Part shown: positions 2,702 to 19,572 of the stretch, piece by piece
Position numbering within the stretch: position 1 is the first letter of the stretch
Layout: every line of letters begins with the position of its first letter
Source: Candidatus Woesearchaeota archaeon
GTDB lineage: Archaea; Nanobdellota; Nanobdellia; Woesearchaeales; 0-14-0-80-44-23
NCBI GenBank assembly: GCA_038874135.1
Contig: JAVZCZ010000001.1
Coordinates: 288,968 to 352,967 of the forward strand
Direction of reading: 5' to 3'
DNA: 64,000 bases
Translations under genes and position numbers: made by a program
The notes under the pieces: model-generated
The model's input: the letters and a program-made list of their open reading frames with translations, nothing else
Told to the model about the DNA's origin: nothing
The model's database searches: none

Positions 2702-4672
2702 ATGCATAAATCTAAATGCCAGATTATGAGCAGAGTAATATTTTTTTCGCACAAAAAGATTTTTGAAAACGGGAATAATTCTGCTTCAGACATTAGATTT
2801 TTAGAAATGGCAAAAGTTCTTGTTCAAAATAATCATAAAGTAACGATTGCTGAAAAATTAAGAGAAAACGAAGAAGTCTTACTTGGAATAAGATTTGTTG
2901 GATGGAAAAATGTGCTTAGTTCTGACCTTTCAAAAGAGTATGATGTTGCAATAGTGCCAATTTGGACTACTGAGAAAGAAGTTCTAGACAGAATAAAAAA
3001 TATAGCGATTGTAGTAGACGCGTATGCTCCAATAGTTTTAGAGCAATCGAGTAGATATGCAAATAAAACGCCTAGTAGAAGAGAAGTTTCTGATTTTGTA
3101 AATTATGTTCTAACCAAATCCAATGTTTTATTATCAATGGCTGATTTTATTATGTGTGCTGGAGATAGACAAAAATTGTACTATACAGGAATATTAAGCG
3201 CCCTTGGAAGGATCAACCCGTTTTCATATGAAGAAAAGCTTATTGAATCAGTTCCATCAGGAGTTCATCTCAAAAGACCAGTTAATAAAAAAGAAGTATT
3301 TAAGAAAATAATTGGTGAAAATAAAAGAATAGTTTTGTGGCCCTCTACAATATTTCCTTGGTTTGATGCAGAAACTGCAATAAGAGCAATGAAGATAGTT
3401 GCAGAGGAAGAAAAAGAAGCGGTACTGGTATTCTTAGGCGCAACTGGTTTACCGAAAGACAGTTTAGGATATGAGGAAGCTGAGGAAGCGAAAAAACTTG
3501 CTGAAAAAGAAGGAATTTTGAATAAAAATGTTTTCTTTATAGAAAGAATTCCGTATCAAGATGTGGAATCTGCTTATTTAGAGTCGGAGATAGCATTAAT
3601 AACTTATCCGCCCGGATTTGAAACAGAGTTCGCATTTAGAACTAGAACTATTCATTGTATGTGGGCGGGTTTGCCGGTTATCTGCTCTGAAGGTGATGAA
3701 CTGGCTGAGATCATAAAAAGAGAAGGGCTCGGCGTAGTGGTTAAGCCTAAAGACCCTGAAGTACTTGCGAATTCAATAATAAGATTATTGAAAAATGAAC
3801 AACTAAGAGCTGAAATTGCAAAGAATGGACAAGAATATGTGTTTAAGAATTTTAGTTGGGAAAAAGTGTGTAAGCCATTAGAAGATTTTTGCAGTAAGCC
3901 CCGGATTAGTGAGTCAAAAAACTTTTTGACACCCTATGCAATAATAGATGAAAAGAATAGATTAATATGGCAGTTAGAGGAACATCTTGAGGACTATAAA
4001 TCAAAAGATGAAAAATCAAAACAAATAATACTGAAGAACGAGATGGAGATAGAAAAAGAGCAAAGAATAATTGAAGAGCAAAGTAAAGAAATAAAAAGAA
4101 TAAGCAGAAAATCTGAGCAAGTTATAAATGAGTTAAATAAAGAGATCAAGAATAGAGTTAAACACATAGAAAGTTTAGAAATAACAATACAACAACAAAA
4201 CCAAACAATCAAAAACCTAGAAAAAGAAATACAAAACAAAGAACAAACAATACAACAACAAAACCAAACAATCAAAAACCTAGAAAAAGAAATACAAAAC
4301 AAAGAACAAACAATACAACAACAAAACCAAACAATCAAAAACCTAGAAAAAGAAATACAAAACAAAGAACAAACAATACAACAACAAAACCAAACAATCA
4401 AAAACCTAGAAAAAGAAATACAAAACAAAGAACAAACAATACAACAACAAAACCAAACAATCAAAAACCTAGAAAAAGAAATACAAAACAAAGAACAAAC
4501 AATACAACAACAAAACCAAACAATCAAAAACCTAGAAAAAGAAATACAAAACAAAGAACAAACAATACAACAACAAAAAGAAAAACTAGATGAGATATTA
4601 AACTCGCGATGGTATAAGTTCGCTTCTAAAATTGATTCATTAAGCAAGAAATTAGGAATCATTAAAAAATAA
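2702..4672 (+). CDS. GT4-type glycosyltransferase with a C-terminal coiled-coil repeat extension
   Basis: Glycos_transf_1-like core (IERIPYQDVESAYLESEIALITYPPGFETEF...GLPVICSEGDELAEII) followed by about 6 perfect copies of a 21-aa unit TIQQQNQTIKNLEKEIQNKEQ. Confidence 0.7.
   Translation: MHKSKCQIMSRVIFFSHKKIFENGNNSASDIRFLEMAKVLVQNNHKVTIAEKLRENEEVLLGIRFVGWKNVLSSDLSKEYDVAIVPIWTTEKEVLDRIKNIAIVVDAYAPIVLEQSSRYANKTPSRREVSDFVNYVLTKSNVLLSMADFIMCAGDRQKLYYTGILSALGRINPFSYEEKLIESVPSGVHLKRPVNKKEVFKKIIGENKRIVLWPSTIFPWFDAETAIRAMKIVAEEEKEAVLVFLGATGLPKDSLGYEEAEEAKKLAEKEGILNKNVFFIERIPYQDVESAYLESEIALITYPPGFETEFAFRTRTIHCMWAGLPVICSEGDELAEIIKREGLGVVVKPKDPEVLANSIIRLLKNEQLRAEIAKNGQEYVFKNFSWEKVCKPLEDFCSKPRISESKNFLTPYAIIDEKNRLIWQLEEHLEDYKSKDEKSKQIILKNEMEIEKEQRIIEEQSKEIKRISRKSEQVINELNKEIKNRVKHIESLEITIQQQNQTIKNLEKEIQNKEQTIQQQNQTIKNLEKEIQNKEQTIQQQNQTIKNLEKEIQNKEQTIQQQNQTIKNLEKEIQNKEQTIQQQNQTIKNLEKEIQNKEQTIQQQNQTIKNLEKEIQNKEQTIQQQKEKLDEILNSRWYKFASKIDSLSKKLGIIKK
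4184..4580. repeat. Perfect 63-bp tandem repeat (about 6.3 copies) inside the GT4 gene, in frame
   Basis: The unit atacaacaacaaaaccaaacaatcaaaaacctagaaaaagaaatacaaaacaaagaacaaaca repeats head-to-tail with no mismatches visible. Confidence 0.9.
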
Positions 4673-5993: not shown

Positions 5994-7106
5994 CTACCTA
6001 ATTAATCCTTTTGCTTTTGCTTCAGCATATGCCTTATCAAACTCATCCCGGGAATTAACTGAATTAGACCACCTAACCAGATCTTTTAAACCTTCCTCAA
6101 GAGTAACTCTCGGCATAAAATCTAGTCTGGATTTTAATTTGGATATGTCGGCAAAACAGTGCCTGACATCGCCCGGTCTAAATGTTTCTCTAATATCCGG
6201 CTTTAGATTGGCTCCATAGATTGAGATAAGCCTTTCAGCAACTTCTTTTATCGGAGTTGGAGTTCCTGAACCAACATTAAAAATCTGGTAATCCGCATTT
6301 TTTGATTCAAGAGAACGCACACAAACTTCTGCAACATCATATACTGATATGAAATCTCTAGTCTGAAGCCCGTCTTCATTAATTACGGGCGGGTTTCCAC
6401 TTTTTATTCTACTCATAAAAATAGCAGTAACTCCAGTATAAGGATTGTTAAGAGATTGCCTGGGACCATAAACATTAAAGAACCTAAGCGAAACAGATTT
6501 TATTCCATAAGTTGAACCAACTGTCATCACCATATCCTCCTGAGTTCTCTTGTTAATTGAATAGATTGAATTAGGAAAAGTATAATCATCTTCTGAAATG
6601 GCTACCGGAGTAATCTTACCATTGCATTTAGGACATAAAGGCTCCCAGATTTTTCTTTGAAGCTGCTCAACACTACGCAGCCCAGGCCTAACAAAGCCGC
6701 ACTTCTCGCAGTAATACTTTCCCTCACCATAACTGCTCATACTGGCAGCCACTATTATTTTTTTAACATTATTTTTTTTATTTATGATAAAATCAAGAAG
6801 GTTAGCTGTTCCCAGTACAGTATTATCTACATAATCATAAATTTTATACATGCTCTGAGCCACTCCAACAGAAGCCGCAAAATGAAAAACTGCATCAACA
6901 TCTTTCAGTGCCTTTTTCACATCATTTTTATTTCTCACATCTCCCCGAATAAACTCAGCATTCTGGTTTAAATAATCCGGCACCCCGCTGGGATGAACCT
7001 GCGGATCTAAGTTGTCTAAAATTCTCACATCATAACCACGCTCAACAAGTTTGTCCACTACGAAGCTACCTATAAAGCCTGCTCCACCTGTAACGAGAAC
7101 ATTCAT
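5994..7106 (-). CDS. NAD-dependent sugar epimerase/dehydratase (SDR family) with an internal CxxC...CxxC zinc-ribbon insertion
   Basis: MNVLVTGGAGFIGS Rossmann motif (ATG 7106; longest ORF starts at TTG 7127). Catalytic YxxxK region. Inserted segment YCEKCGFVRPGLRSVEQLQRKIWEPLCPKCNG. Confidence 0.7.
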   Translation of the reverse strand: MNVLVTGGAGFIGSFVVDKLVERGYDVRILDNLDPQVHPSGVPDYLNQNAEFIRGDVRNKNDVKKALKDVDAVFHFAASVGVAQSMYKIYDYVDNTVLGTANLLDFIINKKNNVKKIIVAASMSSYGEGKYYCEKCGFVRPGLRSVEQLQRKIWEPLCPKCNGKITPVAISEDDYTFPNSIYSINKRTQEDMVMTVGSTYGIKSVSLRFFNVYGPRQSLNNPYTGVTAIFMSRIKSGNPPVINEDGLQTRDFISVYDVAEVCVRSLESKNADYQIFNVGSGTPTPIKEVAERLISIYGANLKPDIRETFRPGDVRHCFADISKLKSRLDFMPRVTLEEGLKDLVRWSNSVNSRDEFDKAYAEAKAKGLIR

Positions 7107-7123
7107 TTTTTCACCTTCCCAAT

Positions 7124-8170
7124 TCAAACATTAAGAGATTCTTGAATAGTTGAGATATTCTGTTTTATCCATGCTAACATTATCTTAACGCCTTTTTGTG
7201 GCGAAGTAGAAGGCTTCCATGAAAAATGCTTTTCTGCCTTTCTTATGTCACTAATGTAAACCTTCTGGTCTCCTGCTCGCCAGGGCCCAAACTTATATGA
7301 AATCTTTTTTGAAAGAAGCTTCTCAAGAATTGAAATCAGCTCTAACAGAGAAAGCGTATTCTTTGGGCCTCCACCAATGTTATAGATTTGTCCCGCAGTT
7401 TTTTTACTCTTCAGAGCAAGTTCATAAGCTCTAACTAAATCCTTAACAAACAACACATCCCTAACCTGTTTGCCGTCTCCATAAAGAGTAAGAGGCAGGT
7501 TTAATGATGCAGCTATTGCAAACCAAGCCACCCAGCCCTGGTCTTCAATACCAAACTGCCTTGGACCATAAATGCAGGACTGCCTAAAAACAACTGTGGG
7601 CAGGCCATAAATGCGATAGTAATCTCTCACATACTGATCTGCACACCCCTTGCTGCAACCATAAGGACTGTGAAAGTCAATAGGCCTATGCTCGTCAATT
7701 GCAGTTATATTTTTATAAACATAGCGGCTCTGAGTTTCCGTTACCTTAACATCTTCCATCTGTCCATACACCTTGTTTGTGGAAGAGAAAATAAGCTTAG
7801 GGGTTTTCTTTGACTTTCTCGCCGCTTCAAGCACATTGAAAGTTCCTAATGCGTTGCTTTCAAAATCATATCTCGGATCAATTATTGAAGAAGTCATCGC
7901 TGTTTGTGCCGCCAAATGAATTACATAGTCTGTATTTCTAGTTTCTTTTTCAAGAAGCTTAATGTCAGTTCTTATGTCGGCTTTAACAAATCTGATCATA
8001 GGATAATCTTTTTTCAAAATTAAGAGATTATTCTTAGAACCTTTTCTTGAGAGATTATCTAACACGGTTACATCATATCCCTTATTAATGAAATATTCTG
8101 CAGTGTTAGAACCTATAAAGCCCGCTCCCCCCGTTATTAATATTCTAGGCCCATTCATTTTAGCGAACAT
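7124..8170 (-). CDS. NAD-dependent sugar epimerase/dehydratase (SDR family)
   Basis: RILITGGAGFIGSNTAEYFINKGYDVTVLDNL. Stop overlaps the downstream epimerase start, suggesting an operon. Confidence 0.7.
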   Translation of the reverse strand: MFAKMNGPRILITGGAGFIGSNTAEYFINKGYDVTVLDNLSRKGSKNNLLILKKDYPMIRFVKADIRTDIKLLEKETRNTDYVIHLAAQTAMTSSIIDPRYDFESNALGTFNVLEAARKSKKTPKLIFSSTNKVYGQMEDVKVTETQSRYVYKNITAIDEHRPIDFHSPYGCSKGCADQYVRDYYRIYGLPTVVFRQSCIYGPRQFGIEDQGWVAWFAIAASLNLPLTLYGDGKQVRDVLFVKDLVRAYELALKSKKTAGQIYNIGGGPKNTLSLLELISILEKLLSKKISYKFGPWRAGDQKVYISDIRKAEKHFSWKPSTSPQKGVKIMLAWIKQNISTIQESLNV

Positions 8171-8239
8171 ACATTTTTTAAGTAAACTTCCATTTCTATT
8201 TTTAAAACTTTTGATTTTTACAAGCTCTTGTGAAAAATC

Positions 8240-8935
8240 TCACTTTTTAATATATATCTTTACATTCCCAATCTGGTAAAGTGTGCTGTTTGCTATAAAA
8301 TCTTGAAATAGTTTTTTGCCATTACACTCAAGAGGGTATTGGGGCATGACTATAAGAAGACGCGGATTCCATGAATTAAGTTCAGCATCATGATTGACTG
8401 AGGAAGAGAACATAGGGTCACCTTCATAGCATACAAATCTGATAAAGTTGAATGGCTCACGATTGGAGAGTAAGTAAATCTCTCCATTCCAACCATAAAC
8501 TAAGATTCTATCTGTTGAGTTGGTATGCTCTTTTATAAAACTGATCACTCTAGTCTGTTCTTCTGCTCCCGAAAAATCGCTGTATGGGAAGTGAAATATC
8601 TTATAATTGATGTTATAATCAGGATATTGTTTAGAAGCGAAGAAAAATGTTGTAAACGATGTGATTAGAAGTAATATTACAAGTACTGATTTTTTATATC
8701 CATTCTTTGATTGAATTAAAAACTTCAATCCCCGTGCAGAGTAAAAGGCTATTGGTGGAAGTACAATTATAAAGTAGTGCCCGAATGAAGGAGGAATAAA
8801 ACAGATTAACAAACCAAACAGTAACCAAGATAAAAACAAAAAATTTATTTGTTTAGAATCTTTGCCATTCTGTATGAGAGATAAAATTCCTAAAAGGGAT
8901 AAGAACAAAAAACATAAAGATTCAAGGATTATCAT
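8240..8935 (-). CDS. Membrane protein, GT-C-like C-terminal module (paralog of the C-terminal third of 12910..14394)
   Basis: Shares the motif IPPSFGHYF plus ...QYP(D/N)xNINxK... with the 494-aa polytopic protein at 12910..14394. About 3 TM segments followed by a soluble domain. Confidence 0.4.
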   Translation of the reverse strand: MIILESLCFLFLSLLGILSLIQNGKDSKQINFLFLSWLLFGLLICFIPPSFGHYFIIVLPPIAFYSARGLKFLIQSKNGYKKSVLVILLLITSFTTFFFASKQYPDYNINYKIFHFPYSDFSGAEEQTRVISFIKEHTNSTDRILVYGWNGEIYLLSNREPFNFIRFVCYEGDPMFSSSVNHDAELNSWNPRLLIVMPQYPLECNGKKLFQDFIANSTLYQIGNVKIYIKK

Positions 8936-8997
8936 AAAATAACCTTCTGCTATTTATTTAGAAAAATTTTTATATGAACACCTTCTTTTTTAGTATA

Positions 8998-10494
8998 ATG
9001 AAAATTTTGCTCATAAACCCGCTTTTTTATTTTAATGGACATCTGTTTAAAAAGAATTACAAAGAGATTAATCTGGGATTATTATACTTAGCATCTGTTG
9101 CGCAAAAAGAAGGTTTTTCTGTTAAAATAATAGCTTTAAATAAACTAGAGACTGAGCGCATAATAAAAAGAGAAAAACCAGACATTGTTGGAATAAGTTG
9201 TATGATAGGACAACAACGGGCCGGTCTTACTATTGCAAAAAAGGTTAAAAAAGTCAATAAGAAGATTATCGTGATAGTGGGAGGGTATTATCCTACTTTC
9301 AGGTATAAAAAGATTTTGGAACAAATACCTGAAGTAGATGTAGTAGTGATAGGTGAAGGTGAAGAATCTTTTAGTGAACTATTAAGATTAATAAATCAGA
9401 AAAAGTTTAATTATAACAATCTAAAAAAGATTAAAGGGATTGCATTTAAAGAGAATAAAAAAATTGTTTTTACAGGAAATCGCGAATTACCGAATTTAGA
9501 TAAATTGCCTTGGCCTAGTAGGACGCTTTGGAGAACAGTTAATTTCTTTGCTTCTCGAGGGTGTAGATTTCGATGTAGGTACTGTTCAATAACCAAATTT
9601 TATAGAAAAGTTGAAAGGTTTAGATCAGTAAAAAATGTTATAGAAGAATTAAAGTGGTTAGAAAAGTTGGGGGAAAAAGATGTTAGTATTAATGACGATA
9701 ATTTCTTAGATAATTTGGATTGGTTTTATAAATTTAGGATATTTTATGTAAAGCAAAGATTAAAGATAAGGAGTGGGATAATGAGTAAACTATTAAATGT
9801 TTTAAGATTAAAAAAACTTAGGTATCTAAAGGAGTGTAATATTAATGAAATCAGTATAGGTTTGCAAGGGATAGGAGATGAAGAAAATAAATTTTTTAGA
9901 ACTGGACACACACTTAAATTATTAGAAGAATTTAATAAAAAACTAATAAGAGAAAACGTTGAATTTGATGCTATTAGTATATTTCTAATAATTAATAGTG
10001 GTGTCAAGCATGAGAACGAGGAATCAATTTTTAATAAGGTAAAGAGAGTAGTAGATCTTTTACCTGAAGGGGCTATCCCTAAGAAAAATAAGCTTGCATT
10101 GTACCCGGGAACAGATATTGCTGAATATTTCATAAAAAAGGGATACTACACAGAGAGTGAAAGCGTATTTAAAGATGATGACTATTTTAATTATTCTTAT
10201 GCAGACCTCAATGAAAGAAAACTTACTGACTTGATAGCTACTGTTGATCAACTATATGAAGAAAGAGCAAAAAGAGAAAGATGGAAAAAGATACCAAAGA
10301 GAATAAGTGCAAATTTTCTTAGTACGGTGAATGCTTACTTGATTATGCTAATGCGCTCTTCTATGAGTTTATGGTTGAAGATCCGTATACTTATGTTCAT
10401 AATATATATAGTTATTAAAGAGTTTGTTTCGTTCAGAAATCCAATTAAAAATGATTATAAATTGGGAAGAATGATCAAAATTAAATATTTCTGA
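8998..10494 (+). CDS. Cobalamin (B12)-binding radical SAM protein
   Basis: MKILLINPLFYF... B12-binding N-term. Radical SAM motif FASRGCRFRCRYCS (Cx3Cx2C). Longest ORF starts at 8974. Confidence 0.7.
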   Translation: MKILLINPLFYFNGHLFKKNYKEINLGLLYLASVAQKEGFSVKIIALNKLETERIIKREKPDIVGISCMIGQQRAGLTIAKKVKKVNKKIIVIVGGYYPTFRYKKILEQIPEVDVVVIGEGEESFSELLRLINQKKFNYNNLKKIKGIAFKENKKIVFTGNRELPNLDKLPWPSRTLWRTVNFFASRGCRFRCRYCSITKFYRKVERFRSVKNVIEELKWLEKLGEKDVSINDDNFLDNLDWFYKFRIFYVKQRLKIRSGIMSKLLNVLRLKKLRYLKECNINEISIGLQGIGDEENKFFRTGHTLKLLEEFNKKLIRENVEFDAISIFLIINSGVKHENEESIFNKVKRVVDLLPEGAIPKKNKLALYPGTDIAEYFIKKGYYTESESVFKDDDYFNYSYADLNERKLTDLIATVDQLYEERAKRERWKKIPKRISANFLSTVNAYLIMLMRSSMSLWLKIRILMFIIYIVIKEFVSFRNPIKNDYKLGRMIKIKYF

Positions 10495-10530
10495 AGAAGG
10501 GTTAGATGGGACTTGGACTTTAAATAAGTG

Positions 10531-10641
10531 CTATCCCAAACTGCTACTACCGGTAACGTGATAATTACACGAGCTAGTTATAGTATCAGTCATTGCAATC
10601 TTTCTAAGAGTGGGCTTTTTCCATACAATCTTGCGTTTCAT
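10531..10641 (-). CDS. Candidate RiPP precursor peptide (36 aa), unannotated small ORF
   Basis: My own translation: MKRKIVWKKPTLRKIAMTDTITSSCNYHVTGSSSLG. It lies 95 nt downstream of the HprK-like gene on the same strand. A TATA-like element (gtttatttataaac, 10661-10674) sits about 26 nt upstream of the ATG. The WKKP leader resembles the PqqA N-terminus. Confidence 0.35.
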   Translation of the reverse strand: MKRKIVWKKPTLRKIAMTDTITSSCNYHVTGSSSLG

Positions 10642-10736
10642 TTTATAAAAAATAATTATTGTTTATTTATAAACTTTTCGCAATAGCTTGGTTTAAACTT
10701 TTATGCTATTTTTAAACATGAAGATAAGCTAACCTT

Positions 10737-11588
10737 TTAAAGATTTGATGAATTGTTTGTAACAAAATTTGTTACGAAGGATACGACAGAATTGTCTTTT
10801 TTGAATTTAAGAGTATACGCTTTAACTGAGTTAACACACGACATCACCAATTTTATGAATTTGGCCTTTGATTCAAAGCTGTAAGGTATTATTGAATTTT
10901 TTAATAAATTATTCAAAAAACTATTTATTCTTATATCTTGTATACTATTATGATTAGATTTTTTAATGAAGAATATATATGCGAGTTCTCCTTTTTTATT
11001 AGAAAAAGATTTCGCACTGCTCTGTGCAGGAGTTCCATAACAGTAAAATTTTCCATTTTTTTTAATGATTATATTAAGTTCGTCGCTAAAACAATTAAAT
11101 CCTGATTTTTTAAACAGTTTACATAGAGTACTTTTTCCTGTTCCGCAGGGACCGACAAATAGAACTACTCTTTTGCGATTGTGCAAATCAAACATAACTC
11201 CGGAGGAATGAACTAAAAAGCTATTTTTTTTCGTCAAATACATCGCCAGTATTCTTTTATTAAAAATGTTTTCAATATCTGTCTTATTAGAAAAGAAGCT
11301 AACTTTATTTTTTTCCTTTATTACGCCCCACTCGCCAGTTTTAGGTTTTATAATTAACTTAGAATTATATTCTAAAAATTTAACTGCAAAGTCTCTGCTC
11401 ACAAGTTTAGATCCTGGAGGGACACAAAAATATCTATAATTCTTCATTAAGAAGGTATAATCCTCTTTTTTATTAGTTCTAAATTGAGCAAATCTATTTA
11501 AGTTAAGATTTTTTTCAGAAACTACCTTAACTACTACTGGACCTATTTTTATTTTAAATTTTTTCATATAAATCACAGTTAATAACAA
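10737..11588 (-). CDS. HPr kinase-related P-loop protein (HprK-like, peptide-maturation associated)
   Basis: Walker A FVGPCGTGKSTLCKLF, in HprK C-terminal-domain-like context. Same strand as the rSAM/SPASM and PqqD genes, and overlaps the rSAM stop. Confidence 0.55.
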   Translation of the reverse strand: MLLTVIYMKKFKIKIGPVVVKVVSEKNLNLNRFAQFRTNKKEDYTFLMKNYRYFCVPPGSKLVSRDFAVKFLEYNSKLIIKPKTGEWGVIKEKNKVSFFSNKTDIENIFNKRILAMYLTKKNSFLVHSSGVMFDLHNRKRVVLFVGPCGTGKSTLCKLFKKSGFNCFSDELNIIIKKNGKFYCYGTPAQSSAKSFSNKKGELAYIFFIKKSNHNSIQDIRINSFLNNLLKNSIIPYSFESKAKFIKLVMSCVNSVKAYTLKFKKDNSVVSFVTNFVTNNSSNL

Positions 11589-12580
11589 TTGTTAAAAAAG
11601 AGTTTAGCAAGTTTACACAAGCGTGGAATCTTTGCTGAGTTAGATGATTTTGGATCGAAGGATTTGATTTCTTGTTCTGCAAAGCCAGGACACCAAAAAC
11701 ATATATTACGGTATTTACAACTAGCACACTTTTTGAATTTCTTTATGTAACTTTGTCTAATGTATTTTAAAGTTTTAAAAGCAATTCTCAGATTCGGAAG
11801 AGCTTTTACTCTTTTTTTTCTTAAGAGGAAGCAGAGCCCCATATTTCCTTTTGAATCAATATGAAAAGAGCGGATACCTGCACTGCAATTAAAAACTTCA
11901 GCTGAATGTTTTAATACTTTTAAGTTTATTTTGTATCTATTACAAAACAAATCAAAAAGATCGTGTGTTGATAAACTAACCTTTCTAGCATTTTTTCCGA
12001 TGATAATTGGATTAAACTCTATCCTTTTTTTTGTAAAGTTCAAACTAAGATTATCAAGTTTTTTAAAGTATTTCTTTAACTGATAAAGAGGAAGCGTTCT
12101 GAGTTCTAGATTAAATTTCTTTAAGGATTTAAGATTATTTAGTACAGTAGTGTATGCTGCTTTTCCAGTTATTTTTCTATACGTAATGTTATCGACTCCG
12201 TACAATGTGATTCTTATAAGCATAGGAGGTTTTTTCTTAAAAGTATCTAATATTTTTTTTGTAACAAAAGACCCATTTGAGTTTATAGTTATTCTATTAC
12301 CAAACAGGGTGTACGCATAATTATAAATTTCTAAAAAGTTTGGATGAAGTAGAGGTTCTCCTCCTGTTAGAATTATATTTGTAACACCGAGTCGATAGGC
12401 CTGTTTAAGAATCTTTTTAAATTTGATCACGGGTAATTCTGAGCTAGTAGCTTGTTTAATATTCTTAAAATAGCAATGTTTACATTTGAAGTTGCATTTC
12501 TGTGTTATTTCCAAATGAAGAAGATTAGGGGGAAATTCCTGATTTAAGATAGTTTCAGATTCTTTATCGTAGCTGTACAT
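11579..12580 (-). CDS. Radical SAM peptide maturase with C-terminal SPASM-type Cys cluster
   Basis: LEITQKCNFKCKHCYF (Cx3Cx2C), TGGEPLL. C-terminal CASCKYRNICFWCPGFAEQE auxiliary cluster motif. Confidence 0.7.
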   Translation of the reverse strand: MYSYDKESETILNQEFPPNLLHLEITQKCNFKCKHCYFKNIKQATSSELPVIKFKKILKQAYRLGVTNIILTGGEPLLHPNFLEIYNYAYTLFGNRITINSNGSFVTKKILDTFKKKPPMLIRITLYGVDNITYRKITGKAAYTTVLNNLKSLKKFNLELRTLPLYQLKKYFKKLDNLSLNFTKKRIEFNPIIIGKNARKVSLSTHDLFDLFCNRYKINLKVLKHSAEVFNCSAGIRSFHIDSKGNMGLCFLLRKKRVKALPNLRIAFKTLKYIRQSYIKKFKKCASCKYRNICFWCPGFAEQEIKSFDPKSSNSAKIPRLCKLAKLFFNNCY

Positions 12581-12581
12581 T

Positions 12582-12854
12582 TTAGGATTTTATTAAGATT
12601 TTTAAAGACAGTGCTTTTTTAATAAAGTTCATAAAATCTTTATCTAATTTACTTGCACTAATATCAAATTTCCGGCTTAGAATTTTTTTAGTTTTAGAAA
12701 TCCCATTTTTTACAACACCTTTTAATATGATCGATGCAGTTTTATTTAAGATAAAGTAATTAGGAGAATTTTTTCTAGTTAGTATCAGAAAGTACTGATT
12801 ATTATTAACTGAATAGAATCTGGCTTTTCCATTAAAAAAATATTTTTTTGACAT
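12582..12854 (-). CDS. PqqD-family RiPP recognition element (peptide chaperone)
   Basis: 90 aa. YFILNKTASIILKGVVKNGISKTKKILSRKFDISASKLDKDFMNFIKKAL matches the PqqD fold pattern. The radical SAM gene starts 1 nt downstream. Confidence 0.6.
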   Translation of the reverse strand: MSKKYFFNGKARFYSVNNNQYFLILTRKNSPNYFILNKTASIILKGVVKNGISKTKKILSRKFDISASKLDKDFMNFIKKALSLKILIKS

Positions 12855-12909
12855 AATTAATATTAAAAAGGCAGTAAGCTTTTTAAATATTGCTATTTTA
12901 ATTTTTAAA

Positions 12910-14394
12910 GTGAATAAGATAAATAATACAAAAGAAAGAATTGATAAAGAACTAGTTTTTCTAATAATCTTATCAATTTTTTTAAGATTTATATGGCTAT
13001 ATGCTGCTATAGAACGAGATGAAGGAATTTTTGGTTATAGTGCATTTAAACTATCGATTAATGAATTAAAAATTGTGGATAATAAAATTCCTATTGTTTA
13101 TATCATCTATTTATTAATAATGATTATACACAAATTACTTTCCTTTAATTTTCCTGTAATTATTAGTGTACGAATTGTTAATAACCTCCTATTCCTAATA
13201 GCAGTAGTTTGCTTATATAGGTTTTTTTCAGAGGAAAAAAGAGAAATTGCCTTTTTTTCTACTATCTTTTTCATAATATTCATGAATCTTCCTGTTTTTG
13301 AAGGACAACTTGCTATGACTGAATCATTGGGAATGAATTTTTTTGTGTTAGGATTAATATATATGCTTAGATATGCTAAACATTATGAACCTGCTTATTT
13401 TAGAATATCATTTTTTTTCTTTTTACTGGCCGCTTTATTAAAGTACCCTTTTTTGTTCCTTTCAGTTCATACGATTATATTTTTTATAAAAAACAGAACA
13501 GGTTTTAAAAAAGTTGCTCTTTTTTTAATTACTTATTTTATAACAGCGATTCTGATGCTTGGTTTCTATTTTATTGCATTTCCTGAAAATGTTTTATTTT
13601 TTATTATTGAAAGTATAAACGTATTAAATGAGGTCCCTGAAATTTACAGTTTTAGTAGTCTTAAGTTAGTTCTTATCGAGGGTTTCTTTTTTATAATTTT
13701 AGTTGTTTTAGGTGTTTTAGAGTATTATAAAGTAGAGAAAAAGGAGAAAATTTTTTATTTGTTTAAGAATATGTTGCTTATCTCATTGGTACTCTCATTG
13801 ATTCCTCCTTCGTTTGGTCATTATTTTCTGATAAATTCAATAGCTGTAGCATTTTTTGCTGGAGTTGGAATACTATCCTTAAAAAGGTTTAGCATTAAAT
13901 TAGTGAAGTATATCATAATTGTAATTCTTTTCCTTGCAATTATAATCTCAGTTTATTTTTCAATGTTACAATATCCTAATCTTAACATTAATTTTAAAGG
14001 AATTAACGTAGTATATAATGATTTCTTAGATTTGAAACAGCAGTTAGAAGTTTCAAAATTTTTAGAAAATCATATTAAACAAAACGAGAGCTTTGCCATG
14101 TGTGGTTTTGATGGAACTTTAGGTTGGCTGTCAGAACGGCGTATTTTTTCTGGAGTTAGAAAATTTTGTTATATTCCAAACGGAAAAGAAAATGAAAATA
14201 AAGTTTTAAAAATATTAAAAGATAGATACCTTTCAAGAATTATAATTTATGATGTAGCTAAAATTTTAAGTTGCGAACTACCAGATAATATTAAATATCT
14301 GGTTCTATTTACTAATGCATATGATGAAACTTTGTTTAAATGTACTGGTAAGATTGAGATGAAATATGATAATTTATTGATTTGCAAATGTTAA
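12910..14394 (+). CDS. Polytopic membrane protein, GT-C (PMT/ArnT-like) glycosyltransferase candidate
   Basis: About 11 predicted TM helices followed by a C-terminal soluble domain. GTG start. Shares the IPPSFGHYF module with 8240..8935. Confidence 0.45.
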   Translation: MNKINNTKERIDKELVFLIILSIFLRFIWLYAAIERDEGIFGYSAFKLSINELKIVDNKIPIVYIIYLLIMIIHKLLSFNFPVIISVRIVNNLLFLIAVVCLYRFFSEEKREIAFFSTIFFIIFMNLPVFEGQLAMTESLGMNFFVLGLIYMLRYAKHYEPAYFRISFFFFLLAALLKYPFLFLSVHTIIFFIKNRTGFKKVALFLITYFITAILMLGFYFIAFPENVLFFIIESINVLNEVPEIYSFSSLKLVLIEGFFFIILVVLGVLEYYKVEKKEKIFYLFKNMLLISLVLSLIPPSFGHYFLINSIAVAFFAGVGILSLKRFSIKLVKYIIIVILFLAIIISVYFSMLQYPNLNINFKGINVVYNDFLDLKQQLEVSKFLENHIKQNESFAMCGFDGTLGWLSERRIFSGVRKFCYIPNGKENENKVLKILKDRYLSRIIIYDVAKILSCELPDNIKYLVLFTNAYDETLFKCTGKIEMKYDNLLICKC

Positions 14395-15548
14395 GTGACA
14401 AAATGATAGTAAAGAATTACAGACGGCTAAGATTCATCATTGTGTTACTTTTTATTGAAATGATTATCATATTAATGTGGTTATCACATTATGAGATTGA
14501 GAGATATCAACAGCAACAGATTAATAAGTTGAATGAAAAGATTGAAAAATTACTCGAGTATTCAAAGCATTTAAATAACAACTGTACAGTTATTGTTTAT
14601 GAAGATAACAGTTTAATATGTGAAAAAACTGCTGGGCCATACACAATTTATGATTACATAAAATTATACGAATTCACAGGAGAACTGGATTTTTTTAATA
14701 CTGCTAAAAGATTAAGTGCTTGCTTGGAAAATTCAAATTTTTCATATATTAAAGATAGATGTGATTTAAATCTGTGGGATGGCAAAAATTATAAAATTGC
14801 CTGGATGTTTTCTGAATATTATTATTATAATCATTTGAACAAATCGGCAGGAGACATTTATAAAAAAATGTTAGAAGATTTAAAAATGAATATTTCTAAT
14901 AACCAGAATATATCTGAAAATTTAATATTAACCCAGTTTAAAATAAGGGAGCTTAGAGCATTAGAACAACAAGCCATTAATAAATGTATTATAAACAAAG
15001 AATGCAATATAACCGAGGAATATAAAAAGATAATTCAAGCATATCTAGAGATTGAAAGTATTTCTGAAACAAATTTTTTTTACATAAACCCTCAATGGTT
15101 ACAAGGAGCATGTTCTGCATTAAAAGGATTTAAAATGTATGGAGACCCTAAAAATTTTGAAACAAATATTATAATAAAAGAAATTGAAATTAGAGTATTT
15201 CACAGAATCAGTAGACTTTTAAGTGATCAAAGAATAGAAGGATATTTTAATGAAAAATTTTTTTCAAAAAAAGATGATGTAGATAGTACAATCTATACAT
15301 ACAAAGCAGTATTAGCGTTAGACGCCTGTCTTGATGCAAAATTAGCACCTTACAGCTTAAATGCAATAATTAATCAAAGTATAAAAAAAGGTTTAATCTA
15401 TTTACTAAATCAACAGGATGAAAAAGGAGGAATAATTGAAAGATATAAAGTTCCACATAAAACAGAAAGTTTAAACGATGAGATCCTTGTACTCGCTATA
15501 AAATATTTTGGTCTTCCCTACAAAAAAATAAATGAAAAAATCAAGTAA
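14382..15548 (+). CDS. Hypothetical N-terminally membrane-anchored protein
   Basis: Single N-terminal TM (FIIVLLFIEMIIILMWL), then a soluble domain with Cys pairs. 13-nt overlap with the upstream gene. No confident family assignment. Confidence 0.4.
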   Translation: MQMLSDKMIVKNYRRLRFIIVLLFIEMIIILMWLSHYEIERYQQQQINKLNEKIEKLLEYSKHLNNNCTVIVYEDNSLICEKTAGPYTIYDYIKLYEFTGELDFFNTAKRLSACLENSNFSYIKDRCDLNLWDGKNYKIAWMFSEYYYYNHLNKSAGDIYKKMLEDLKMNISNNQNISENLILTQFKIRELRALEQQAINKCIINKECNITEEYKKIIQAYLEIESISETNFFYINPQWLQGACSALKGFKMYGDPKNFETNIIIKEIEIRVFHRISRLLSDQRIEGYFNEKFFSKKDDVDSTIYTYKAVLALDACLDAKLAPYSLNAIINQSIKKGLIYLLNQQDEKGGIIERYKVPHKTESLNDEILVLAIKYFGLPYKKINEKIK

Positions 15549-15624
15549 GTAGATTAGAATGATTTTAGATAACAATTTAAATATGAAAAATATTTTATAA
15601 TCCATACCTAAAAGAGGAAAATTT

Positions 15625-17430
15625 ATGAAATTTAAAAGATCTCCAAAAGTATATCAAAATTATAAGTGTGACAATCCTAAGAATACAATAAGAAAAATTG
15701 ATAGTGGCTTTAGAAGAGTTGGTCTTGCGGTAGTGTACAGATGTAAAGAAATTAAATTAAAAAATTTAAATTATTTCACGGGTAGTGTGAGGCTTCCTTA
15801 CTTAAATCTTACAAGTAATGGGAAAGGCTGGAATTATTATTTAAGCAAAGCCAGTGCATGTGGAGAAGCTGTTGAACGATTTTCAGCTGAGATGCATTCT
15901 CCTGCATCTTATCTATTTATGAAGAGTATTATAAAAAATTTCTGGGCAGATGATATTAAATATTATTCTTCTTTTTATTTTAAATCTTTTACAAAAAATA
16001 AAGGGAATAGTAATAAAGCAAGTTATACAAATGATAAAGTCACTAATAATTGGTTGAGAGAAATTAAAAAACAGATGAACAGTGTGAGAAGGAATAGTAA
16101 AAATGTTTATGCATTCTCTCTAATTCATAAAAAATATATAAGAATTCCTGCAACAAAGGTTAAATTATTATCATTTTCGAATGGGCTAGCTGCTGGCAAT
16201 ACCCTAGAAGAAGCAATTGTTCAGGGAGCTAATGAAATTTTTGAAAGATATATTTTAGCAAGAGTTATTAATAATAAAAAGAAGATATGGCCAACGATTG
16301 ATAAAACCAGTATAAAAAGTAAGAGGATAATTAATTTTATTAAGTTATTTGAAAGTAACAATTTTGACATAATTTTAAAAGATTTTTCATTGAATGGCGA
16401 ATTTCCCTGTTATGGTGTATTATTTGTTAATAACAATTTAAAGAATACAAAAAATAAAATAAAAAAAAGGTATTTTTTTAGAAGAGTAAGAATTGCATCA
16501 GATTTTAATCCTGAGATTGCTATTCTAAGATGCTTTATGGAAGAATTACAAGGTAAAGATTTAAAAGATCTAAAAAAACATAAATATTTAGACTCAATTT
16601 GGGAGTTGGGCCTAAAGGAAAATTTAAAGTTTGTATTCAATACGGATCTATCAAACTTAAGATATTACCATTATCCTAAGAGTTTAAGACATCTAGAAGA
16701 AGGTAAAATAGAAAAGTTTGACCATTTAAAAAATAAGAAATTTAGTGATTTCTATGATGAACTAGAAGAAATTAAAAAAATAATAGAAAAACAGAAAAGA
16801 GATATCTTAATTATCGATTATACCCATCCGAAAATAAGGTTTCCTGTTGTGCGAGTAATAATTCCAGGCATGTCAGATATGGTAAATTTGTTTTCATCAA
16901 TTAGACTAACAAAAGCATCAGATGAAGAGATATATTCTCTAATGTATCCTTATTTTAAGTATATGAAAAGATTTATTTTAAATAATATGTGGGTCAAATC
17001 ACAAGAAGGAGTTAAAGAGTTTGTTGAAGCGCTCAGATCATATATTTCAAATTATCCGCTTATGGAAGAGATTCCAACTCCGGTTTTCCCATTAAAAGAA
17101 AATTCAGTTTATATGCTAATGCTATTTTCCTATTTGCGAATAAGAAAGTATGAATCAGCTCTTAATTATCTAAAAACAATAATAAAAATTTATCCAAAAA
17201 ACAAAAAACTTTTTGATAAACTGTACCGATATTTAAAAAGTGTAAAAAAAGATAATATAAACTATGAGAGAATTAAAGTAATGGTTAAAGATCTACCATT
17301 TCAGGAAAAAGTTATACTTTTAGAACCACATAGAAACCCATTAGACCCAAATTTTTTCCTAAGTAAAGAAAATGAATTTTTTACTAAATTAGTTTTGATT
17401 AGAGCAATGAAATCTTTTGAGGGGTCATAA
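15625..17430 (+). CDS. YcaO-domain protein with C-terminal TPR-like extension (E. coli YcaO-like architecture)
   Basis: ATP-binding YcaO motifs SNGKGWNYYLSKASACGEAVERFSAE and SFSNGLAAGNTLEEAIVQGANEIFERYI. 601 aa. Shine-Dalgarno-like aagagga lies upstream. Confidence 0.8.
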   Translation: MKFKRSPKVYQNYKCDNPKNTIRKIDSGFRRVGLAVVYRCKEIKLKNLNYFTGSVRLPYLNLTSNGKGWNYYLSKASACGEAVERFSAEMHSPASYLFMKSIIKNFWADDIKYYSSFYFKSFTKNKGNSNKASYTNDKVTNNWLREIKKQMNSVRRNSKNVYAFSLIHKKYIRIPATKVKLLSFSNGLAAGNTLEEAIVQGANEIFERYILARVINNKKKIWPTIDKTSIKSKRIINFIKLFESNNFDIILKDFSLNGEFPCYGVLFVNNNLKNTKNKIKKRYFFRRVRIASDFNPEIAILRCFMEELQGKDLKDLKKHKYLDSIWELGLKENLKFVFNTDLSNLRYYHYPKSLRHLEEGKIEKFDHLKNKKFSDFYDELEEIKKIIEKQKRDILIIDYTHPKIRFPVVRVIIPGMSDMVNLFSSIRLTKASDEEIYSLMYPYFKYMKRFILNNMWVKSQEGVKEFVEALRSYISNYPLMEEIPTPVFPLKENSVYMLMLFSYLRIRKYESALNYLKTIIKIYPKNKKLFDKLYRYLKSVKKDNINYERIKVMVKDLPFQEKVILLEPHRNPLDPNFFLSKENEFFTKLVLIRAMKSFEGS

Positions 17431-17571
17431 AAAGGGAATGGCTGAATTAGAGATAAATAAAGCAAAGATTACCAGAAAGACCTGTGAACTAAAAATGCAT
17501 GAAATTTAGAAACCTTTTTAAACCCTTCCCTTTACTCCCTTGTGAGGTAAAGATTTTGAAGGGGAATTTAA

Positions 17572-18174
17572 ATGGTTGAAATAAAGGCTTTTAACAGGTG
17601 GAGCACGCAGGGCATCGTAGTTAGTGATCCTGGCTTGAAGGATTATATTACTCTTGAGCCCAAGATTGCTCCTAGGAGTAACGGCACATATGCTGGAAAC
17701 AAGTTTTACAAGTCTAAGATTTTTATTGTTGAGCGCCTTATGAATAAGCTGATGGTTGCTGGGCATAGGGCTAAGAAGCACACTTTTACTTCTTCCCTGC
17801 TTACTGGGAAGAGCCAGAGCGCTTACAAGCTTACTGAGAGAGCTTTAGAGATTATTGAGCAGAAGACCAAGAAGAATCCCATTCAGGTTTTGGTTACTGC
17901 TATTGAGAACGCTGCTCCCCGTGAGGGCATAGTTTCTATAGAGTATGGAGGTGCCAGGTATCCTAAGGCAGTGGATGTGAGTCCTCAGCGCAGGATTGAC
18001 TTAGCGCTTAGGCTTATGGTGCAGGGTGCTTATGCTAAGACTTTTAACAATCCTAAGAAGAAGTTTGAGGAGATGCTTGCTGCTGAGATAATAGACGCTT
18101 ATAATCTCAGTCCGAACTCAAATGCGATATCTAAGAAGCTTATGACTGAGAGGCAGGCTGAAGCTTCAAGGTAA
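17572..18174 (+). CDS. rps7: 30S ribosomal protein uS7 (S7P)
   Basis: MVEIKAFNRWS...LMVAGHRAKKHTF...IENAAPREG typical archaeal S7. GC content higher than upstream block. Confidence 0.85.
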   Translation: MVEIKAFNRWSTQGIVVSDPGLKDYITLEPKIAPRSNGTYAGNKFYKSKIFIVERLMNKLMVAGHRAKKHTFTSSLLTGKSQSAYKLTERALEIIEQKTKKNPIQVLVTAIENAAPREGIVSIEYGGARYPKAVDVSPQRRIDLALRLMVQGAYAKTFNNPKKKFEEMLAAEIIDAYNLSPNSNAISKKLMTERQAEASR

Positions 18175-19158: not shown

Positions 19159-19572
19159 ATGAATGGGTTTGAGATTTTTTTAGTAAAAGGTAAGAGTATG
19201 CGTCCCTTATTAAGAGAGGGTGATAGTTGTATTGTTGTGAAAGATAAGAATTATGGTCTTTTTGATGTGGTGGCATTTCGGAGGAAAGGAAAGGTTATTA
19301 TTCACAGAATTGTAAAATTTCGCAGGGACGGCAGGGTTACTACTCACGGGGATAATTCAGCAAGTTTTTTTAGAGCACTTGCCTCTTTTGAAGTTATTAG
19401 AAGGAAGGATATTATTGGGAGAGTTGTCTGCATTGTAAGGTCTAGAAGGAAGGTTGAAGGGTTTCGTTTGAAGCTTCTTTCGTTTTTCTCACTTGTTTTG
19501 GGAATTTTTAGGATGCTTCCGTTTCTTTTTAAAAGGTATGTTTTTGGCTTTAAGCCTCGTAAGGCTCTTTAA
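19159..19572 (+). CDS. S24/S26-family serine peptidase (signal peptidase / LexA-catalytic-domain-like)
   Basis: KGKSMRPLLREGDSCIVV ... VVAFRRKGKVIIHRIV (Ser/Lys dyad pattern). Small, 137 aa. Confidence 0.5.
   Translation: MNGFEIFLVKGKSMRPLLREGDSCIVVKDKNYGLFDVVAFRRKGKVIIHRIVKFRRDGRVTTHGDNSASFFRALASFEVIRRKDIIGRVVCIVRSRRKVEGFRLKLLSFFSLVLGIFRMLPFLFKRYVFGFKPRKAL

Follow-up and report, generated by a model that had tools for sequence, protein, structure and literature searches.

What is the substrate of the peptide-modifying enzymes that appear to be encoded, side by side, in the genome of a Candidatus Woesearchaeota archaeon? The question is raised by a 64,000-nucleotide (nt) stretch of contig JAVZCZ010000001.1 (positions 288,968 to 352,967; the whole stretch is hereafter called the window, and positions are counted from its first letter). 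Here, genes for a PqqD-like protein, a radical S-adenosylmethionine (SAM) enzyme, and a kinase-like P-loop protein follow each other on the minus strand. Directly downstream of the kinase-like gene lies an open reading frame (ORF) of 36 codons, for which a role as precursor of a modified peptide with a PqqA-like leader had been proposed from the letters of the sequence alone (the original prediction). The comparison with related loci presented here makes it highly probable that this ORF is a genuine precursor gene of a peptide that is made on the ribosome and modified after translation (RiPP), whose product would be the substrate of the three upstream enzyme genes. The evidence that carries this reading is a leader motif and a fixed distance from that motif to a cysteine, both of which recur in small peptides encoded beside similar gene cassettes in dozens of bacterial phyla.

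The open reading frame downstream of the kinase gene

The translation agrees with the predicted one in coordinates, strand, ATG start codon, and length (36 amino acids (aa), Table 1). The ORF is located within a gap of 242 nt (10495-10736; it had been put at 240 nt), which is bounded on one side by the stop codon of the kinase-like gene (10737) and on the other by that of a convergent gene for a B12-binding radical-SAM protein (10494). It was also rightly described as unannotated: the exact 36-aa sequence was not found among 15 billion called proteins, and therefore no gene caller has reported the peptide gene. A search of the region 10300-10900 with Rfam gave nothing close to the gathering score, and the gap is thus not explained by a known RNA element. 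An antisense ORF of 52 aa with a GTG start (10528-10686, plus strand) was considered as an alternative and rejected, as it has neither a family match nor the motif.

When 3 Mb of random sequence with the same composition were examined, 0.78 ATG-initiated ORFs of 25-100 aa occurred per 240 nt. An ORF of such length is therefore expected by chance, and it is the content and the conservation of the frame that have to serve as the test.

A peptide family with a constant distance between leader and cysteine

Because no close relative of the window locus is available, distant loci were compared. Species-representative genomes were scanned with four bacterial ScmC-like kinases, which delivered 67 loci from many phyla, and two further look-ups brought the set to 69 (individual loci are numbered with an L where they need to be told apart). 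A peptide-profile match was found on the kinase strand in 62 of the 69, usually between the radical-SAM gene and the kinase gene; in five of the seven loci without a match, less than 800 bp are available upstream of the kinase before the contig ends. The small ORFs of the 62 loci share a basic N-terminus, the [Y/W]-x-K-P-x-[L/I/V] motif, and a first Cys that is 15-18 residues past the Pro. In these kinase loci, the genes usually stand in the order PqqD, radical-SAM, peptide, kinase, and genes for an NTP_transf_5 nucleotidyltransferase and an S24/S26 peptidase often come next. The peptide family occurs in Omnitrophota, Chloroflexota, Acidobacteriota, Nitrospirota, Myxococcota, Desulfobacterota, and other phyla. 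Many relatives of the window kinase carry the Pfam family PF27840 (ScmC).

The family consensus consists of a basic N-terminus, the leader motif Y/W-x-K-P-x-I/L/V-x-x-I/V, and a following block x-L-x-P-E-E-A-V-L-x-x-C-K, usually with two further Cys residues. The bacterial cores vary widely in length and sequence, and a C-terminal Gly-Ser is strongly conserved (the last residue is Ser in 31 of 39 bacterial peptides). One example of a peptide with three Cys and a terminal Ser is UCC94338.1 of the Omnitrophota locus CP070807.1. The distance from the Pro of the leader motif to the first Cys is nearly constant: 16-18 residues in 36 of the 39 bacterial peptides (with 17 as the mode), 15-17 in variant loci and in clusters without a kinase, and 15 in the window ORF. 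The window peptide likewise has the basic N-terminus, the leader motif, and a Cys within 15-18 residues after the Pro, and its Cys25 aligns to the invariant first Cys of the family. Where family peptides have been called at all, they are named 'hypothetical protein'; the others are uncalled. No Pfam family (E ≤ 1) and no NCBIfam family (E ≤ 10) was obtained for the window peptide, and the other members of the family are likewise without a model.

The only word-level relative of the window kinase lies on a Woesearchaeota contig (L001), which carries an ScmC-type kinase, PqqD, and a number of radical-SAM genes. An uncalled ORF of 33 aa (MIKKDSYEKPTIKKIGNLSDLANKVCTTTGTEA), of the form MIKKDSYEKPTIKKIG...C...., immediately follows its SPASM radical-SAM gene. 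L001 resembles the window in that its peptide gene comes after the enzyme genes, and so do two further loci, L081 (kinase, PqqD, radical-SAM, 61-aa peptide) and L083 (kinase, PqqD, radical-SAM, S24 peptidase, and a 58-aa peptide beginning MKKVYEKPEV). The leader motif is also found in the peptide of L010. Furthermore, the closest homologues of the window radical-SAM enzyme in a word-based protein search (about 30% identity) belong to bacterial clusters without a kinase (L003-L008). These encode one or two copies of called 34-aa peptides (M-S/T-Y-T-K-P-E-L...CWYGSGENDPYC); next in line are genes for a 96-aa protein, the radical-SAM enzyme, and two ABC transporters. Their peptides share the leader motif of the kinase cassettes and have a Pro-to-Cys spacing of 17, so that the module of leader and cysteine ruler extends past the kinase-containing cassettes.

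The original prediction had asked for a conserved small ORF at syntenic loci of relatives. Such an ORF, with the same leader motif and Pro-to-Cys spacing, was found beside the cassette almost everywhere, and the proposal of a precursor with a WKKP-type leader for the adjacent PqqD-like protein and a Cys/Ser/Thr-rich core is supported by this comparative genomics.

Wider searches added no further members. A profile of five short-type peptides, run against a set of 5.8 billion proteins, returned only a query sequence, and of the 600 pattern matches that were obtained when metagenomes were scanned with the window kinase, not one was confirmed. A metagenome scan for the DNA pattern of [W/Y]KKPxLRKIA delivered 16 matches, none of them beside a cassette gene, and they were therefore taken as chance.

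Two minor observations concern the kinase loci. In L009 (14-613) and L083 (4739-5953), a flagellin gene lies directly upstream of the ScmC-like kinase. The kinases of these two loci have an N-D-E-F-N-I-I stretch where the window kinase has S-D-E-L-N-I-I, and L083 still has its downstream peptide with the leader motif. The peptidases of the bacterial cassettes are found fused to NTP_transf_5 in L011 and as stand-alone proteins in L024, L081, and L083.

Family member or chance frame

Profiles were built from the 39 bacterial peptides only and searched against 1681 six-frame segments of the window. With a hidden Markov model (HMM) of the full peptide, the window ORF was matched at E = 0.029, in an alignment that spans the basic patch and WKKPTLRKI and places Cys25 on the first Cys of the family. 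A leader-only HMM ranked the ORF first among the 1681 segments (E = 0.12), and the same HMM gave the top rank to the peptide next to the cassette in L001, L010, L081, and L083 as well. The original prediction had named a different small ORF elsewhere in the cluster as a possible refutation; neither motif nor profile searches of the window found another small ORF that matches the family. One segment (56385-56519, minus strand) reached an equal score on the Cys-rich part only. It has no Met and no leader, lies antisense inside an ORF of 3069 aa, and was rejected as a chance match.

Several observations weigh against the assignment. The E-values of the window ORF are marginal when taken singly (0.03-0.12), and the unrelated antisense segment just mentioned scores equally on the Cys-rich part. 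The kinase nearest to that of the window is 38% identical over 170 aa, and the databases contain nothing closely related to the locus; conservation is therefore shown at the family level only, and a coding test based on substitution patterns is impossible. Compared with the bacterial consensus, the window peptide has one Cys instead of three, has no PEEAVLxxCK block, and ends in Gly instead of Ser (...SSSLG), and an NTP_transf_5 gene was not found in the window. The 90-aa PqqD-like protein matches the Pfam PqqD model (positions 8-66/67) at E = 0.0019, which is under the cut-off, and a structural search with a single-sequence model of this protein gave nothing significant, so that its assignment is based on profile comparison.

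These marginal scores, the expected 0.78 frames per 240 nt, the frequency of TATA-like strings, the silence of the gene callers, and the existence of a cassette-like locus (L080) in which no peptide is recognizable would all fit a frame that is open by chance in an AT-rich spacer. The likeness of its leader would then be coincidental, and the substrate of the operon or the peptide gene would lie elsewhere. We consider this very unlikely. A frame with even the loose leader motif is expected only 0.003 times per 240 nt of random sequence, and only 0.0004 times when the Cys spacing is added. Across the 64 kb of the window, the ORF is the only one that combines motif and spacing, no other small ORF there matches, and it abuts exactly the type of cassette that is so regularly accompanied by such peptides. 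We regard the case for a genuine precursor as strong because the individually marginal scores are taken together with this location. Within the family, the window locus belongs to a divergent short-peptide branch, together with L001, L010, and L069.

The neighbouring enzyme genes

The three genes upstream of the peptide ORF are on the same strand and so tightly packed that they are separated, or overlap, by only a few bases (Table 1). Their products are of the kinds that had been assumed, namely, a PqqD-like protein, a radical-SAM enzyme with the cysteine pattern of a SPASM domain, and a P-loop protein of the HprK/PEPCK fold.

Table 1. Coordinates of the precursor-peptide ORF, its elements, and the neighbouring genes in the window
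Feature	Position	Strand	Description
Precursor-peptide ORF MKRKIVWKKPTLRKIAMTDTITSSCNYHVTGSSSLG	10531..10641 (including stop codon)	-	ATG start, 36 codons/36 aa
Leader motif codons W7-K-K-P10-T-L12-R-K-I15	10597..10623	-	Proposed recognition motif of the PqqD-like protein, [Y/W]xKPx[L/I/V]
Cys25 codon	10567..10569	-	Sole Cys of the peptide; proposed site of radical-SAM modification
BRE/TATA-like element CGAAAAG-TTTATAAATA	10664..10680	-	TATA at 10673-10664, -32 to -23 from the ATG
HprK/ScmC-like P-loop protein	10737..11567	-	Putative peptide Ser/Thr kinase; 276 aa from ATG 11567; mechanical ORF (283 aa) from TTG 11588
Radical-SAM enzyme	11579..12580	-	Putative peptide maturase; 333 aa; CNFKCKHC near the N-terminus; Pfam Radical_SAM 1.6e-22
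PqqD-like protein	12582..12854	-	RiPP recognition element (RRE), putative peptide chaperone; 90 aa; stop one base from the radical-SAM start codon
B12-binding radical-SAM protein	8974..10494	+	Convergent on the peptide gene; 506 aa; Pfam B12-binding + Radical_SAM

The kinase-like protein (identical to NCBI QXD43_04255, of a Candidatus Aenigmatarchaeota metagenome-assembled genome) has weak matches to the models HprK_rel_A and HprK_rel_B (27.9 and 20.1 bits; TIGR04352 and TIGR04355, cut-off 200), which cover the P-loop region only. An exhaustive HMMER search collected 3397 relatives, in whose alignment His120, the Walker-A Lys145, and a conserved S-D-D/E stand out; the first two are invariant, and the arrangement of the three is typical of HPr kinase. 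The AlphaFold2 model (predicted local distance difference test score 92.8) was matched by Foldseek to PEP carboxykinases and HPr kinase/phosphatase with a probability of 1.0.

For the radical-SAM enzyme, the C-terminal cysteines (C-x12-G-x4-C ... C-x2-C-x5-C-x2-C ... C) were read from the sequence as SPASM-type, and the Pfam SPASM model itself gave no match. Its best curated matches are peptide and haem maturases, all far under their cut-offs, and the closest solved sequences are SkfB (E = 9.7e-9) and PqqE. The radical-SAM genes in the cassettes of the bacterial loci are its homologues, with tblastn E-values from 1e-22 to 1e-38.

The profile comparisons behind the PqqD assignment include a match of the 90-aa protein to the lasso_PqqD model (E = 0.0057) and its alignment by hhalign to a profile of 39 cassette PqqD-like proteins (probability 80%, E = 1.4e-5). 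When an HMM of the cassette PqqD proteins was searched against the six-frame translation of the window, the 90-aa ORF was the only match (E = 3.4e-4). The predicted topology of the protein is strand-strand-strand-helix-helix-helix.

Comparison with known systems

Curated models were tested on nine neighbouring ORFs (8240-17430), and the locus was compared with the systems in which similar protein types are combined. In the PqqA/PqqD/PqqE system, too, the peptide is very short and has a W-K-K-P-x-hydrophobic element at its N-terminus, and it is accompanied by a stand-alone chaperone of the PqqD type and by a SPASM radical-SAM enzyme. The WKKP motif is indeed shared with Klebsiella PqqA, as the sequence given in the original prediction is 100% identical to a K. 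pneumoniae gene product annotated as PqqA. In PqqA, a conserved Glu-x3-Tyr pair becomes pyrroloquinoline quinone (PQQ). The window peptide, in contrast, contains no Glu, and the residue four positions before its only Tyr (Tyr27) is Ser23. The radical-SAM enzyme scores 45.8 bits against the PqqE model (cut-off 381.35), neither PqqB nor PqqC was matched among the neighbouring ORFs, and there is no pqqF; a kinase, on the other hand, is present, and the core is centred on Cys. The description 'PqqA-like' is thus apt for the leader, which is analogous to that of PqqA, and the peptide was rejected as an actual PqqA because it has no Glu-x3-Tyr pair and no model match and because the PqqE score is far under the cut-off.

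In mycofactocin biosynthesis, likewise, a small peptide (MftA) occurs together with a PqqD-like protein (MftB) and a SPASM radical-SAM enzyme (MftC). The radical-SAM proteins of the bacterial cassettes align over their full length to the MftC model with 97-99 bits, which does not reach the cut-off of 265. MftA ends in a C-terminal Val-Tyr, which the cassette peptides do not have; their cores are Cys-centred and variable, and genes like mftD, mftE, and mftF are missing.

Both systems deliver redox cofactors, and the window ORF could, by analogy, be the real precursor of such a compound, in which case the radical-SAM enzyme would act on C-terminal residues and the product would be excised as a small molecule instead of being retained as a cross-linked peptide. 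The common architecture with pqqADE and mftABC, the shared WKKP, the full-length alignments to the mycofactocin maturase, and the conserved C-terminal Gly-Ser of the bacterial peptides, which resembles the conserved C-terminus of MftA, speak for this explanation. We nevertheless hold it to be very unlikely. No match to PqqA, PqqE, or MftC above the cut-off was obtained, no genes like pqqB/C or mftD/E/F lie nearby, and the Glu-x3-Tyr pair is absent. Moreover, what is best conserved in the cores is a Cys whose distance from the leader is fixed, and this suggests a chemistry based on Cys; the cores also vary widely in length and sequence, in a manner untypical of a cofactor precursor.

Leaders of lasso peptides are characterized by the motif YxxPxLx3G, with YxxPxL spacing and a penultimate Thr. 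The window sequence WKKPTLRKIA has the aromatic-xxPxL element at the spacing of lasso leaders, but Ala takes the place of the Gly, the penultimate Thr is missing, and no lasso model matched the peptide; the peptide of L001 was matched by lasso_leader_L3 with E = 0.022 and 14.8 bits (cut-off 19). Some lasso systems with HPr-kinase tailoring (paeninodin and pseudomycoidin) resemble the bacterial cassettes, which also contain a kinase, a nucleotidyltransferase, and Ser-terminal peptides; the window peptide differs here as well, since it ends in Gly and not Ser. Neither a cyclase (Asn-synthetase-like) nor a B2 protease was found among the nine ORFs, and a SPASM radical-SAM enzyme is present instead. 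On the basis of these neighbours, the peptide was rejected as a lasso precursor.

The same kinds of proteins are combined in the SynChlorMet (SCM) cassette (ScmC/ScmD/ScmE/ScmF), in which an HprK-like ScmC, a PqqD relative, and SPASM radical-SAM enzymes are encoded side by side, and for which we know of no named precursor. The window proteins remain distant from it. The kinase has no ScmC match at E 0.01 (TIGR04249, cut-off 125), no ScmD match was obtained (TIGR04248, cut-off 100), and the radical-SAM enzyme reaches 58.4 and 63.2 bits against ScmE and ScmF (cut-off 400), with one radical-SAM gene present and not two. The systems of HprK-related kinases A and B include the same three protein types, but the window kinase is far under their 200-bit cut-off. 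Proteins of the bacterial cassettes also miss, by wide margins, the curated cut-offs for SynChlorMet and HprK-related families.

Finally, sactipeptides and ranthipeptides (SkfA/SkfB, subtilosin with AlbA, and PapB) share with the window a SPASM/twitch radical-SAM enzyme guided by an RRE and a core that contains Cys, and the AlbA, PapB, and StsB models were among the matches. Unlike in those systems, the RRE in the window is a protein of its own and not fused to the enzyme, the core has only one Cys, the locus includes a kinase, and the scores are far under the cut-offs of the families. As far as can be judged from sequence, the window system fits a generic RRE-guided RiPP pathway with a SPASM radical-SAM enzyme.

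Proposed maturation of the peptide

In the scheme that we propose, the peptide would be made, probably as leaderless mRNA from a promoter of its own, as is suggested by an element resembling an archaeal B recognition element (BRE) and TATA box upstream of the ATG. The element, whose position would fit an archaeal promoter of this kind, is only suggestive because TATA-like strings occur at about 3.4 per kb per strand in the stretch of 26-30% GC around the ORF. Thus, the TATA-like element of the original prediction was found, and the 'strong' promoter that had been read into it comes down to an AT-rich consensus match. Across 45 long ORFs no preferred distance from TATA to ATG was seen, the data being too sparse.

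PqqD-type domains bind leader elements of the aromatic-x-x-P-x-L type, as in PqqA on PqqD and the lasso YxxPxL on B1. Since the leader of the window peptide has the spacing of the PqqA element WKKPAF and of lasso YxxPxL, the 90-aa PqqD-like protein would most likely capture residues 5-15 or so, with the leader as a whole (approximately residues 1-17, consisting of the basic patch and the motif) docking on it. The core (approximately residues 18-36) would then be presented by this chaperone to the radical-SAM/SPASM enzyme, which would act at Cys25, 15 residues from the docked Pro. The constant ruler between the leader and the first Cys suggests that it is this Cys that is delivered to the SPASM active site. 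The likeliest product would be a thioether cross-link that starts from the Cys, as in sactipeptides or ranthipeptides, which is our best guess because of the kinship with SkfB-type enzymes.

By analogy with lasso-peptide tailoring, the HprK-like P-loop protein, in which the catalytic residues of HPr kinase are preserved, would phosphorylate Ser/Thr residues of the tail (TGSSSLG). Homologues of HPr kinase place a phosphate on the C-terminal Ser of lasso precursors in their linear form; in the case of pseudomycoidin, this phosphate receives a hexose from a nucleotidyltransferase (PMC8498205). The bacterial cassettes include both enzyme types (HprK-like kinase and nucleotidyltransferase) along with Ser-terminal peptides. 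With the tail ending in ...TGSSSLG and no NTP_transf_5 in the window, phosphorylation of tail Ser/Thr would be expected here without further decoration. More speculatively, the convergent B12 radical-SAM enzyme might methylate the peptide, and a signal-peptidase-like enzyme might cut off the leader.

The B12-binding radical-SAM gene ends 37 nt from the stop of the peptide ORF, and such genes also occur beside the cassette in L001, L079, and L081. Its product is a possible accessory tailoring enzyme, with uncertain membership in the system. It has also to be considered whether this protein, or the YcaO protein encoded 5 kb away (15625-17430), might be the main maturase of a real precursor, which would make the operon secondary or unrelated. 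The proximity and recurrence of the B12 radical-SAM genes would agree with this, as would the Ser, Thr, and Cys residues of the core, which YcaO enzymes can modify. Such an arrangement seems most unlikely, given that the YcaO protein has no match at E 1e-4 in the 79 loci compared and that B12 radical-SAM genes are present in some loci only, whereas the peptide family nearly always comes with the PqqD-like protein, the SPASM radical-SAM enzyme, and the kinase. We therefore continue to view the three upstream genes as the ones that would act on the peptide.

Implications

We found no description of the cassette in the open-access literature; subscription literature lay outside the search. The window ORF may be the first recognized archaeal (DPANN) member of a large, undescribed RiPP class, a proposal that we hold tentatively, as it falls somewhat short of an even call. 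The class would be defined by a [Y/W]xKPx[L/I/V] leader for a stand-alone PqqD-like protein, a ruler of 15-18 residues to a Cys that is modified by a SPASM enzyme, and an HprK-like kinase that phosphorylates the tail. Judging from their gene content, bacterial members of the proposed class often add a nucleotidyltransferase and an S24/S26 peptidase.

If this is true, the peptides would supply the missing substrates for ScmC/HprK-related cassettes that are listed without a precursor in curated databases. For the window itself, the assignment would give a cassette of three enzyme genes, which are otherwise listed as hypothetical, a substrate that can be tested, in an archaeon that is uncultivated and has a small genome, and it would tie an archaeal locus to a peptide family of many bacterial phyla. 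The family would pair radical-SAM chemistry with a peptide kinase, and to our knowledge, no such pairing has been characterized outside of lasso-peptide tailoring. Furthermore, the constant distance between motif and Cys is a checkable rule for the positioning of substrates by PqqD-like chaperones, and leader motif and Cys ruler together constitute a practical search key for such unannotated genes.

Surroundings of the cassette

The block 8001-18000, which includes the cassette, has a GC content of 26-31%, compared with 37-45% for most of the window past 18 kb, and may be a compositional island, perhaps brought in by horizontal transfer. At the edge of this low-GC block lies a ribosomal protein S7-like gene (17572-18174). 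The YcaO-domain protein (601 aa, plus strand, Pfam 9.5e-44) is encoded at a distance of about 3 kb from the cassette; upstream of its gene lies one for a 388-aa protein without family match (14382-15548, plus strand).

A gene for a PMT_2-like membrane glycosyltransferase (12910-14394, plus strand) points away from the PqqD gene, and a paralogous fragment is found on the other side of the cassette (8240-8935, minus strand; tblastn 2e-20). The cassette of the Woesearchaeota contig L001 is also flanked by PMT_2 genes (6224-7762 and 14938 to the end of the locus). The PMT_2 gene may be a recurring partner, or it may just reflect a surface-glycan neighbourhood.

A signal-peptidase-like protein of the S24/S26 type (137 aa, 19159-19572, plus strand; Pfam S24 1.9e-6) is encoded 6 kb away and may be a housekeeping enzyme. 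The two radical-SAM genes on either side of PqqD in L001 have their best match in the window (E about 1e-24) in a second B12-type radical-SAM gene (573-1670, minus strand), which lies 9 kb from the cassette. Lastly, the ORF 2702-4672 contains a perfect 63-bp tandem repeat (4183-4578, plus strand; 6.3 copies with 100% matches), which encodes QTIQQQNQTIKNLEKEIQNKE repeats in a protein of 656 aa.

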